Virus genome (UHGV): UHGV-2124687 | Reading direction: 5' to 3' (one strand) | DNA from: a virus | DNA length: 13,465 nt | In this document: one piece after another, positions 11,030 to 11,675 of the stretch | Layout: the number at the start of each line of letters is the position of its first letter | Numbering within the stretch: position 1 is the stretch's first letter | The notes under the pieces: generated by a model | What the model saw: only the letters and a program-made list of their open reading frames with translations | Told to the model about the DNA's origin: nothing | Database searches by the model: none | Position numbers and translations under genes: made by a program

Positions 11030-11096
11030 GTTTTACTCCTGACAGGAAATTAACAATTTGTGCTCTTAAAACGTTGATCATTTCCGTGCATGAGTA

Positions 11097-11116
11097 TACT
11101 GTATAAAAAAACAGTA
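11097..11116. promoter_or_regulatory. LexA (SOS) box
   Basis: TACTGTATAAAAAAACAGTA fits the consensus TACTG-(TA)5-CAGTA with perfect CTG-N10-CAG arms. It overlaps a candidate -10 TATACT (11095-11100). A TTGATC lies at 11074-11079. The box ends 18 nt before the dinI-like start. Confidence 0.85.
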
Positions 11117-11134
11117 TATGCAATGGAGGCCATT

Positions 11135-11371
11135 ATGAAAGTTGAATTAACCATTGATCGCATGAAAGAACTTCCTAAAGGCGCGGTTCCAGCACTGGAG
11201 AAAGAATTACTTAACCGCCTGAATGATCACTATGACAATTGCAGGCTTACAATCCGGCGCGCAGGGTCGAATGGGTTAAGTGTTTTTGGCGGTGACAAGG
11301 ACGATAAAAAGAAAATTGAATCAATCCTCCAGGATACCTGGGAAAGTGCAGACGAGTGGTTTGTTAATTAA
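11135..11371 (+). CDS. dinI: DinI-family DNA-damage-inducible protein
   Basis: ATG 11135 with GGAGG 5 nt upstream. The product is MKVELTIDRMKELPKGAVPALEKELLNRL...GLSVFGGDKDDKKKIESILQDTWESADEWFVN. E. coli DinI as I recall it reads MRIEVTIAKTSPLPAGAIDALAGELSRRI...NLSVIGATKEDKQRISEILQETWESADDWFVSE. Confidence 0.9.
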   Translation: MKVELTIDRMKELPKGAVPALEKELLNRLNDHYDNCRLTIRRAGSNGLSVFGGDKDDKKKIESILQDTWESADEWFVN

Positions 11372-11383
11372 CACCCCTTAGCT

Positions 11384-11406
11384 GGTAGCTCCTGCTGCCA
11401 TTTTTT
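11384..11406 (+). terminator. Short hairpin plus T6 between dinI and the next ORF (attenuator or leaky terminator)
   Basis: GGTAGC-tcct-GCTGCC forms a 6-bp stem with one G-U pair, followed by A and TTTTTT. Confidence 0.45.
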
Positions 11407-11492
11407 AAATCGAGTTTCCGCATCGCCTCGCGCAATTATTGCCAGGTAATTCAGGTCGATTCAGGTGTGGGAATCTTTGCAAGGGGCATCTC

Positions 11493-11675
11493 ATGCAAAT
11501 TCCGGATGATTTAATCCCAGGGTTGCCGGAGCACACTGGCCCGGTTCTGATTTATTTCGTGAAGGGGAGCGTGGTGAGGGGATTCGCTTTACGTAAAGAT
11601 GAATTTGTTACGTCTTTGCGGGCATTGGAAGAGGCCAGAAAGAAAGCTGGTCTTCCTGTTTATGATGCAGGATAA
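11493..11675 (+). CDS. Small protein (60 aa) downstream of dinI; candidate LexA-controlled antirepressor
   Basis: ATG 11493 with AAGGGG 6 nt upstream. The product is MQIPDDLIPGLPEHTGPVLIYFVKGSVVRGFALRKDEFVTSLRALEEARKKAGLPVYDAG. Function is inferred only from its position in a LexA-box/dinI operon, together with the non-cleavable repressor. Confidence 0.45.
   Translation: MQIPDDLIPGLPEHTGPVLIYFVKGSVVRGFALRKDEFVTSLRALEEARKKAGLPVYDAG

Follow-up and report, generated by a model that had tools for sequence, protein, structure and literature searches.

How can a lambdoid prophage respond to DNA damage when its repressor appears to lack any means of cleaving itself? We addressed this question in the UHGV virus genome UHGV-2124687, a DicA-type lambdoid prophage whose host is probably Citrobacter freundii; the whole 13,465-nucleotide stretch analyzed is referred to here as the window (Table 1). 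A preliminary description of the window had read the immunity repressor as a 135-aa protein with a helix-turn-helix (HTH) and no S24 domain, and this reading held: Pfam returned HTH families only, with no match to Peptidase_S24, and neither an AG nor a CG dipeptide was found in the sequence. With no S24 domain and no AG/CG cleavage site, a self-cleaving LexA/CI-type (Peptidase S24) repressor was rejected. P22 C2 and other cleavable phage repressors labeled "LexA family" aligned to residues 1–71 only, while the DicA model NF007257 matched over the full length (216 bits against a cut-off of 101, 1.2e-64). From its sequence, we infer that this repressor is non-cleavable. No clear operator repeats emerged when the interval separating repressor and cro (3462–3543) was searched.

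Table 1. Features of the proposed induction module and immunity region in the window (SD, Shine-Dalgarno).
Feature	Position	Strand	Basis or remark
Immunity repressor, DicA subfamily, 135 aa	3054..3461	-	no S24; predicted target of the Rem-like protein
Putative divergent promoter/operator region, repressor-cro	3462..3543	.	role inferred from position only
Cro-like gene, 79 aa	3544..3783	+	Pfam P22_Cro 9.4e-13; equivalent to DicC of the Qin prophage
Terminator-like hairpin AACCCGCTACGGCGGGTT, then T run	11007..11030	+	terminator scan
Conserved block GTGCTCTTAA	11060..11069	+	just upstream of -35
-35 hexamer TTGATC	11074..11079	+	TTGA nearly invariant across loci
LexA box TACTGTATAAAAAAACAGTA	11097..11116	.	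overlaps -10 region
dinI homologue, 78 aa	11135..11371	+	first gene of the operon; Pfam DinI 1.8e-25; phrog_189 3.8e-26
Weak hairpin (TGGTAGC/GCTGCCA) + T6	11383..11406	+	terminator scan and folding
SD AAGGGG of the 60-aa ORF	11481..11486	+	6 nt upstream of ATG
rem-like gene, 60-aa Rem-family (PF27490) protein, predicted antirepressor	11493..11675	+	homology, coding signal, AF2
Terminator-like hairpin, poor T tract	11773..11796	+	downstream of rem; terminator scan only
Ref/DUF968-type HNH nuclease gene	11821..12129	+	Pfam RecA_dep_nuc 1.8e-10, DUF968 1.9e-7

The damage signal would enter several kilobases away from the repressor, through a LexA box that had already been described as near-perfect. 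The box is indeed there, with an exact CTGT-N8-ACAG core and three mismatches to the 20-nt consensus, all of them in its AT-rich center. The window has no other LexA-like site, and none of 200 shuffled controls contained one. A phylogenetic footprint was visible as well: in 36 distinct homologous promoter segments, conservation reached 1.71 bits per position in the half-sites, compared to 0.60 downstream and 1.13 upstream. LexA binding at this box is thus predicted from the sequence, and it would coincide with a promoter, as the -35 hexamer is spaced 17 nt from TACTGT (11097–11102) and 15 nt from TATACT (11095–11100). These hexamers are weak, and the -35 was not flagged by a promoter consensus scan because it scores 8/12. 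The conserved block just upstream of the -35 showed a conservation comparable to that of the LexA half-sites in the same 36 segments; a block similar to GTGCTCTTAA is also carried by Gifsy-2. Further upstream, the terminator scan identified a hairpin with a 7-bp stem including five GC pairs, which would insulate the SOS module from transcription coming from upstream, and a palindrome of this kind stands before the LexA box of every Gifsy prophage (Lemire et al. 2011, PMC3121763).

The gene directly behind the box is a clear DinI homologue, as first proposed: the Pfam match (PF06183) covers profile positions 1–63 of 63 and reaches 89.5 bits against a curated cut-off of 24.2. Since the same protein, at 90 bits, does not reach the 111 bits that NCBIfam requires for its chromosomal DinI equivalog, we regard it as a phage-type paralogue. 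The dinI/promoter segment shares ~93% nucleotide identity with phage mEp237, and this similarity ends at position 11362.

The dinI stop codon is separated by 121 nt from the start of a 60-aa open reading frame (ORF), and the view that this ORF is well initiated and genuine was confirmed by several lines of evidence. It starts with ATG, 6 nt after an AAGGGG SD, its homologues are 59–60 aa long and share its N-terminus, and substitutions at codon positions 1, 2, and 3 number 367, 198, and 891, respectively, so that the pattern is that of an evolving coding sequence. It is under purifying selection, both its start and its ribosome-binding site are conserved, and many contigs carry the exact protein in an unchanged context, with all public copies annotated as "hypothetical protein". 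A family could nevertheless be assigned. Precomputed annotation records Pfam PF27490 ("Rem") for the exact protein and all 37 homologues, BLASTP aligns 49 aa of it at 49% identity (E 1e-15) to the annotated Rem of Qin/Rac-type E. coli prophages, and PHROG matches were obtained to phrog_31309 (4e-12) and phrog_340 (2e-10). A profile search across 1.84 billion representatives likewise recovered a small family only, in which the K-12-type Rem is included.

Other searches returned little. Scans against NCBIfam and a Pfam set without the PF27490 model yielded only a chance-level Hfq match (E 0.086), and no relatives of Rem were found in a PDB sequence search. An AF2 model predicted a beta-hairpin plus helix (pLDDT 86.6), and Foldseek comparison of this confident model to PDB and BFVD returned nothing at E < 0.4; the predicted fold is uninformative about function. 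Overall, the 60-aa ORF is very probably an antirepressor, judging from its homology. The original proposal that it is the antirepressor of this prophage gains support from its Rem membership, from the derepression data available for Qin Rem (see below), and from the DicA-type repressor in the same element. The accompanying suggestion of a possible new antirepressor family is not supported, given membership in PF27490 and in phrog_340, the latter including GfoA-type proteins.

The arrangement closely resembles that of Salmonella Gifsy-1, -2, and -3, in which a terminator, a LexA box over the promoter, dinI, and a small ORF ~110–125 nt downstream occur in the same order. In both cases, the module lies between replication genes and Q, and the window's repressor is also short, predicted to remain uncleaved, and encoded elsewhere in the prophage. 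The anticipated Gifsy-type architecture is recovered in the terminator, LexA-boxed promoter, dinI, small ORF, and short repressor. In Gifsy prophages, induction needs the LexA box of the operon and can be brought about by the small ORF alone (Lemire et al. 2011, PMC3121763), with the antirepressors GfoA, GfhA, and GftA acting on GfoR, GfhR, and GtgR (PMC3121763). The window differs from the Gifsy prophages in its small protein, which is Rem-type and starts with ATG instead of GUG or UUG, in its repressor, which is DicA-type and not GfoR/GtgR-type, and in the gene following the antirepressor, which is a Ref/DUF968 nuclease gene instead of irsA (DUF1367). The identity of irsA as DUF1367 is taken from the Rac record, and the gene follows the antirepressor position in both mEp237 and Gifsy.

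Past position 11362, mEp237 has a GfoA-type gene where the window has rem. Given that the two genes occupy one position behind a shared dinI segment, we consider them exchangeable cassettes. How far the proteins themselves are related was examined with the GfoA family identified through published cloning primers. BLASTP gave no alignment of the 60-aa protein to either GftA or the GfoA-type gp49. Comparison of family profiles with hhalign gave a weak, in-register match between Rem and GfoA (E 1e-3 to 2.5e-3, probability 12–21%), and gp49 and Rem both match phrog_340 at ~1e-20; in structural models, their strand-strand-helix cores appear to coincide. The corresponding comparison with the GftA family was not significant (E 0.17–0.24), and we therefore do not claim membership in that family.

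The protein itself and its repressor point to a second known system, Rem/DicA of the Qin and Rac-type prophages of E. coli. The small-protein family is common to both, with a core that is 49% identical and the conserved motifs G-x-x-L-I-Y, G-F-x-L-R-x-D-E-F-V-T-S, and A-G. The repressor belongs to the same subfamily (135 aa, no Ala-Gly, no S24 domain) with a Cro (DicC-like) and YdaT as neighbors, and rem is located several kilobases downstream from the immunity region, with a DUF968-type gene and Q following directly. E. coli Rem differs in length (83–86 aa compared to 60 aa), with a 26-aa N-terminal part that is absent in the window protein, and the window's rem, unlike the long E. coli type, sits behind a LexA box and dinI. 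Qin Rem derepresses a DicA-controlled dicBp-lacZ fusion 165-fold (Ragunathan et al. 2023, PMC10448788), genetic derepression being the type of evidence available for its action on DicA (PMC10448788). In K-12, the DicA-controlled dicBp is not induced by mitomycin C (PMC10448788), so that SOS control is not general to Rem/DicA pairs, and the signal inducing rem in that strain was not identified in the same 2023 study (PMC10448788). A functional parallel exists in Tum of coliphage 186 and AntC of N15, where the product of a LexA-repressed gene inactivates a non-cleavable repressor by binding. Tum includes a DinI-like half and thus shares the association with a DinI-like sequence (PMC3121763). However, Tum is a 146-aa fusion, the gene order is reversed in its split relatives, both Tum and AntC belong to other phage types (P2-like, N15) with other repressors, and no sequence relationship of the window protein to Tum or AntC was detected.

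To establish how rem genes are wired in related prophages, we surveyed the IMG/VR loci found with alignment A1 plus one long-type Rem. The survey was confined to these loci because a scan of species-representative genomes for rem gave only four loci, and the broad alignment A2 contained too much diversity for a pattern scan. A LexA box was observed upstream of short rem in 37 of 43 non-redundant contexts, with dinI in between for 34 of these and the box directly before rem in the remaining three. Meanwhile, neither a LexA box nor dinI was found upstream of the long 86-aa E. coli Rem type (0/80 loci, 0/31 non-redundant), many of which have hok upstream instead. Some short rem genes without LexA wiring also lie behind hok or a repeat-containing leader, such that the cassettes found upstream of rem comprise LexA-dinI, hok, and a Klebsiella leader with three AAATAGGGGGTTG repeats. 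The lack of a LexA box in the long type (0/31) fits with Qin Rem having no known inducing signal. Rem-type genes of Citrobacter, Salmonella, Enterobacter, and related hosts are thus normally under a LexA box, and the missing rem signal in E. coli K-12 would be simply explained if the E. coli type had lost, or never had, the LexA-dinI cassette.

Direct observation covers the features of the sequence, the families to which the proteins belong, and a wiring and repressor partner that are conserved across related prophages. On this basis, we consider it likely that the window encodes an SOS-input module in which LexA controls dinI-rem, and a Rem-type antirepressor inactivates a non-cleavable DicA-type repressor. 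In an undamaged lysogen, LexA would occupy its box and thereby cover the -10 region of the promoter. Upon DNA damage, RecA-stimulated self-cleavage of LexA would open this promoter, and a single transcript would encode DinI and then, after read-through of the hairpin/T6, the 60-aa Rem-family protein. The latter would bind the 135-aa DicA-type repressor, which is predicted to be unable to cleave itself, and the Rem-bound repressor would leave its operators next to cro, allowing lytic transcription to start.

Which repressor such a Rem would act upon can be examined from the partners found in the survey. In almost all loci with sufficient flanking sequence, a DicA-type repressor was encoded 3.4–8.7 kb upstream of rem, and the phage records with full-length DicA-type repressors were those carrying rem. 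The two genes nevertheless vary independently: two loci (L021 and L022) combine a Rem 97–98% identical to that of the window with repressors only 48–57% identical, and Rem and repressor divergence were uncorrelated (Spearman ~0 within each type). No correlation was observed within types with either the N- or the C-terminal half of the repressor, and therefore no interaction surface could be inferred. Such free reassortment of variants suggests a broad specificity, although the lack of co-variation, while fitting this view, gives no positive evidence for an interaction. Since near-identical Rem proteins are paired with repressors of ~50% identity, action on co-resident prophages is plausible, and the 60-aa protein might even work mainly in trans, as a broad-specificity inducer coordinating the induction of co-resident DicA-type prophages with its own prophage as a possibly minor target. 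Conserved patches of the repressor family, among them PTW-LFGDE and one in the putative C-terminal helix, could form a common docking surface for such an activity, and there is precedent in Salmonella, where GfoA inactivates two heteroimmune repressors, as does GfhA, and FsoA acts on Gifsy-2 (Lemire et al., PMC3121763). However, the DicA-type repressor is nearly always in cis, which makes a cognate role the simpler reading. We thus consider a role mainly in trans unlikely, and it would in any case extend the SOS-input module with a cognate repressor target more than exclude it.

A broader scheme can be formulated only tentatively, and we hold it to be doubtful as a whole. Specifically, rem genes of the short LexA-wired type may encode master inducers of broad specificity whose signal is changed by swaps of the upstream cassette, with the long E. 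coli Rem as a rewired descendant, and the induction threshold being set by a leaky terminator and ribosome-binding-site sequestration. Under such a scheme, one SOS-controlled rem could fire all DicA-type prophages and cryptic elements in a cell, because Rem would recognize the conserved core of the repressors and not their variable DNA-reading parts.

Another possibility is that the 60-aa protein is an SOS-induced accessory, modulating RecA/DinI or supporting Ref/RusA recombination, while the repressor is inactivated by another route, i.e., a spontaneous flip of a DicA/DicC-type bistable switch or a stress signal as reported for Qin. The gene is indeed flanked by dinI on one side and the recombination genes Ref/DUF968 and RusA on the other, some short rem genes stand behind hok or the repeat leader with no LexA wiring, and Qin dicBp needs neither rem nor recA for its derepression, which occurs spontaneously as well as under urea or heat (PMC10448788). 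Yet this scenario would leave aside that expression of a homologue derepresses a DicA-controlled promoter 165-fold, that rem co-occurs with DicA-type repressors in nearly all loci with enough flank, and that its position is equivalent to that of GfoA. Moreover, no similarity to RecA-interacting or nuclease families was found in Pfam, NCBIfam, PDB, and structure searches, and we regard an accessory role as quite improbable.

Under the SOS-input module, rem expression would depend on read-through of the spacer behind dinI. The weak hairpin plus T6 noted there at the outset was recovered by both the terminator scan and folding (hairpin 11383–11400 followed by TTTTTT, -11.2 kcal/mol). It is probably a leaky terminator or an RNA-stabilizing hairpin, although it could also end most transcripts before rem. 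Its position is kept in diverged dinI-rem spacers; however, a covariation test identified a compensatory change in only one of five pairs, which is insufficient to retain the hairpin as a selected RNA structure. In the predicted fold of the spacer (z = -3.0), the SD of rem is paired with CCCCUU at 11374–11379. This long-range pairing is shared by only two related spacer classes, with covariation absent, and that the region following the dinI stop codon might sequester the rem ribosome-binding site is an idea only, derived from this model. Separately, Gifsy-2 carries a comparable hairpin followed by T5 after its dinI. A decayed or silent module, in which transcription ends at the hairpin/T6, the 60-aa ORF is not usefully expressed, and DinI alone is SOS-controlled, would accommodate both the hairpin and the base-paired SD, but is hardly credible given the purifying selection on the ORF, the conserved start and ribosome-binding site with the exact protein on many contigs in equal context, the dependence of gftA on the promoter upstream of dinI despite the comparable hairpin and T5 in Gifsy-2 (PMC3121763), and the three loci with a LexA box directly before rem.

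Taken together, the induction switch is well supported and essentially of an already described type, with the Rem family known before. It links two separately described systems, the LexA-dinI-antirepressor operon of Gifsy prophages in Salmonella and Rem/DicA of cryptic prophages in E. coli, and offers a functional annotation for a protein labeled "hypothetical" in hundreds of Citrobacter assemblies. The advance is incremental since the mechanism itself was already known, and it leads to the prediction that DNA-damaging antibiotics would induce these prophages without repressor cleavage.

Downstream of rem, the second terminator-like hairpin may be where the SOS transcript ends. The Ref/DUF968 gene beyond it adjoins rem in sibling loci too, and occupies the position of irsA in Gifsy.

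We consider it fairly probable that LexA represses a dinI-rem operon in the window and that the 60-aa product of rem would inactivate the DicA-type repressor by binding to it. This mechanism was put forward in a preliminary description, every element of which was found in place or at most one base away; its idea of a novel family did not survive, the protein being a member of the known Rem family. The added value is modest: Rem and DicA are tied to LexA control, in contrast to the E. coli Rem type, which is not LexA-wired. In the Gifsy prophages of Salmonella, repressors are not cleaved, induction requires LexA cleavage and a LexA box ahead of a dinI homologue, a small ORF between dinI and irsA suffices for induction, and the antirepressors form stable complexes with repressors and can act on heteroimmune ones (Lemire et al. 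2011, PMC3121763).

Features of the putative SOS module, the immunity repressor and neighboring genes
Feature	Position	Strand	Details
Immunity repressor, DicA-type	3054-3461	-	135 aa; helix-turn-helix matches only
Small accessory genes	7693-7950 and 8442-8822		nin-like region; identified by sibling-locus comparison
GNAT acetyltransferase gene	9092-9556	-	in cargo insertion
LysR-type regulator gene	9724-10695		in cargo insertion
Terminator-like hairpin + T run	11007-11030		good; upstream of promoter; terminator scan
LexA box TACTGTATAAAAAAACAGTA	11097-11116		consensus scan
dinI	11135-11371	+	78 aa; Pfam DinI 1.8e-25; PHROG 189
7-bp hairpin, then six T	11383-11400		between dinI and rem
rem-like ORF	11493-11675	+	60 aa; ATG start; AAGGGG 6 nt upstream
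Terminator-like hairpin	11773-11796		between rem and Ref/DUF968 gene
Ref (RecA-dependent nuclease)/DUF968-type HNH gene	11821-12129		next after rem; overlaps rusA start

The LexA box is the sole match to the 20-nt consensus (≤3 mismatches) in the 13.5-kb window and has an exact CTGT-N8-ACAG core, while 0 of 200 dinucleotide-preserving shuffles gave a match. With 17 nt between a -35 element (TTGATC) and TACTGT, the left LexA half-site can double as the -10; an alternative -10, TATACT, has a 15-nt spacer, and under either promoter reading the -10 would be occluded by LexA. Across 36 distinct promoter segments aligned on the box, conservation reached 1.71 bits per position in the half-sites, 1.22 in the box centre, 1.13 in the upstream 50 nt and 0.60 in the downstream 45 nt, with the TTGA of the -35 nearly invariant. 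A terminator-like hairpin precedes the promoter, as in all Gifsy prophages (Lemire et al., PMC3121763). We also noted a GTGCTCTTAA block (11060-11069), 5 nt upstream of the -35, which equals the LexA half-sites in conservation across these segments, has a similar counterpart in Gifsy-2, and could be an UP-like element or the site of a second regulator.

The downstream gene is a dinI homologue by both Pfam and PHROG, and the hairpin with T6 that follows it is present as first described. Most diverged spacers keep a hairpin 10–15 nt past the dinI stop, the full U6 tract being limited to the window's spacer class, and only one of five stem pairs shows a compensatory change. Read-through in the window is likely by analogy, since Gifsy-2 has a comparable hairpin + T5 after dinI and its antirepressor nevertheless relies on the promoter ahead of dinI (PMC3121763). 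The 121-nt dinI-rem spacer has a more stable predicted fold than shuffled sequences (z = -3.0), and this fold pairs CCCCUU (11374-11379), directly past the dinI stop, with the rem Shine-Dalgarno AAGGGG (11481-11486). This pairing, shared by two related spacer classes, absent from others and showing no covariation, may sequester the ribosome-binding site as a dose limit or couple rem to dinI translation.

To gauge how general the LexA wiring is, we surveyed 53 short-type (~60-aa) and 80 long-type (86-aa) Rem loci from IMG/VR together with loci from exact matches and genomes, scanning 700–1200 nt upstream of rem for DinI and for CTG-N10-CAG boxes with ≤5 consensus mismatches. Among 43 non-redundant short-type contexts, 34 had a LexA box and dinI, three a LexA box directly ahead of rem (43–147 nt upstream), three an upstream hok toxin gene, and three a Klebsiella leader with three AAATAGGGGGTTG repeats. 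No LexA box or dinI was found in the 31 non-redundant long-type contexts, where degenerate boxes could escape the scan; hok lay upstream in 19. DinI identity among LexA-wired loci ranged from 45% to 100%, and the arrangement is therefore old rather than a single recent clone. Klebsiella-type short rem genes (L005 at ~2620-3000, L054 and L057) lack both LexA box and dinI; their leader, ~380 nt long, contains three copies of AAATAGGGGGTTG(C/A) and resembles an operator array for some other regulator. There, rem is left unannotated in the corresponding phage record. In E. coli-type loci and a few short-type ones, a hok/mok-type toxin gene immediately upstream of rem (L060, L062, most of the long-type loci L069-L148, and L001 at 5437-5650) occupies the slot that LexA-dinI has in the window.

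The promoter and dinI (11000-11362) are ~93% identical to mEp237 and 51 E. coli prophages. The similarity ends at 11362, just short of the dinI stop codon; beyond it, the place of rem and the DUF968/Ref gene in the window is taken in mEp237 by a GfoA-type gene and irsA. Antirepressor genes thus appear as exchangeable cassettes behind a common SOS unit, and this positional equivalence is a stronger functional argument than sequence likeness. For the comparison, GftA was taken from the Gifsy-1/-2 records and confirmed by published cloning primers, and the GfoA family was equated with that of mEp237 gp49 through the gfoA primers (MSNSALQ... and ...VTPPSDI). The BLAST comparison suggested earlier, run as pairwise BLASTP, returned no match of the window protein to GftA or gp49. 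In profile–profile searches, Rem aligned to GfoA in register over 42–53 columns (E 1e-3 to 2.5e-3), GfoA to GftA at 2.7e-4, and Rem to GftA at 0.17; phrog_340 is common to gp49 (1.4e-20), Rem (3e-20) and the window protein (2.4e-10), with GftA in a separate phrog_4847. A moderate-confidence GfoA-family model (pLDDT 68) has two strands (34-39, 42-47) and a helix (57-66) that coincide exactly with the positions aligning to the Rem elements, and two additional N-terminal strands. Distant homology of Rem and GfoA is probable; filing the window protein under GfoA/GftA would exceed this evidence.

The repressor, as described, lacks a Peptidase_S24 match in Pfam, and its sequence contains no Ala-Gly. 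Its match to NCBIfam NF007257 ("transcriptional repressor DicA") spans all 135 positions (216 bits vs a cut-off of 101), and alignment to P22 C2 and similar cleavable repressors is confined to residues 1-71. Full-length matches came from HannyBb, PhiR42_1, PPompW and Klebsiella ST405-OXA48phi1.2, records that also carry a rem homologue. Rem and repressor divergence are uncorrelated within each Rem type: two loci (L021, L022) combine a Rem 97–98% identical to the window's with repressors merely 48–57% identical, and the reverse pairing was found too. The repressor family retains conserved patches (RRK 12-14, IS-WE 35-39, a block ending PTW-LFGDE 45-69, LPESEQ 99-104 and RARV-NFN-LF-ELL-AR 112-128), and the pattern fits a Rem that recognises conserved repressor features, with cross-talk possible as in Gifsy. 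A role exerted mainly in trans, on other prophages, would accommodate such loose pairing as well; it is the less likely reading, since nearly all sufficiently flanked loci in the survey have a DicA-type repressor gene 3.4–8.7 kb upstream of rem and opposite to it in strand.

The proposal of a possible new antirepressor family is contradicted by the precomputed label of the exact protein, PF27490 "Rem"; hmmscan gave no match because that model is newer than the local Pfam copy. Against phage genomes, tblastn found 49–55% identity to rem of Qin/Rac-type E. coli prophages and phages (Rac, PPompW, mEp460_ev081, PhiR42_1, HannyBb), one record annotating it "prophage antirepressor" (BLASTP 24/49 identities, E 1e-15). 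Ragunathan et al. 2023 sought a DicA antirepressor because of the likeness between DicA and the non-cleavable Gifsy repressors, arrived at Rem through transitive PSI-BLAST starting with GfoA and FsoA, and saw rem expression raise dicBp-lacZ 165-fold (PMC10448788). Another SOS-related role is less likely beside this antirepressor kinship.

A silent ORF is also less likely: it is well initiated, as noted initially, its homologues keep start and length, and the short gene's 39 distinct nucleotide variants differ at codon positions 1/2/3 by 367/198/891 substitutions (664 synonymous vs 394 non-synonymous codon changes), from which we infer a real gene that is translated and subject to purifying selection. 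Identical copies of the protein are encoded on many contigs (348 index blocks), in every case within the same prophage context, and its public records, mostly from Citrobacter freundii, name it "hypothetical protein". Only 54 relatives, K-12-type Rem among them, emerged when 1.84 billion cluster representatives were searched exhaustively with a profile. AlphaFold2 with the family alignment predicts a confident small fold (pLDDT 86.6; beta-hairpin at residues 18-32, helix at 42-51), with no significant structural neighbors in PDB or BFVD and no sequence relatives in PDB.

Around the module, the Ref/DUF968 gene places a further RecA-linked function right behind it. A cargo insertion of ~1.95 kb (8894-10844) ends ~160 bp upstream of the module's terminator; it is missing from L006 and L016, otherwise 99–100% identical siblings, and present in L007 and L011. 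Masked N runs cover 7542-7560 (19 bases) and 9442-9518 (77 bases), the latter breaking the acetyltransferase ORF and yielding X in translations there. Judged by sibling loci, the accessory genes include a YdcA-like secreted/lipoprotein-like ORF (PF27300) and a CdiI_ImmP-type immunity homologue (PF24172), the latter possibly an orphan immunity gene protecting from toxins of contact-dependent inhibition.
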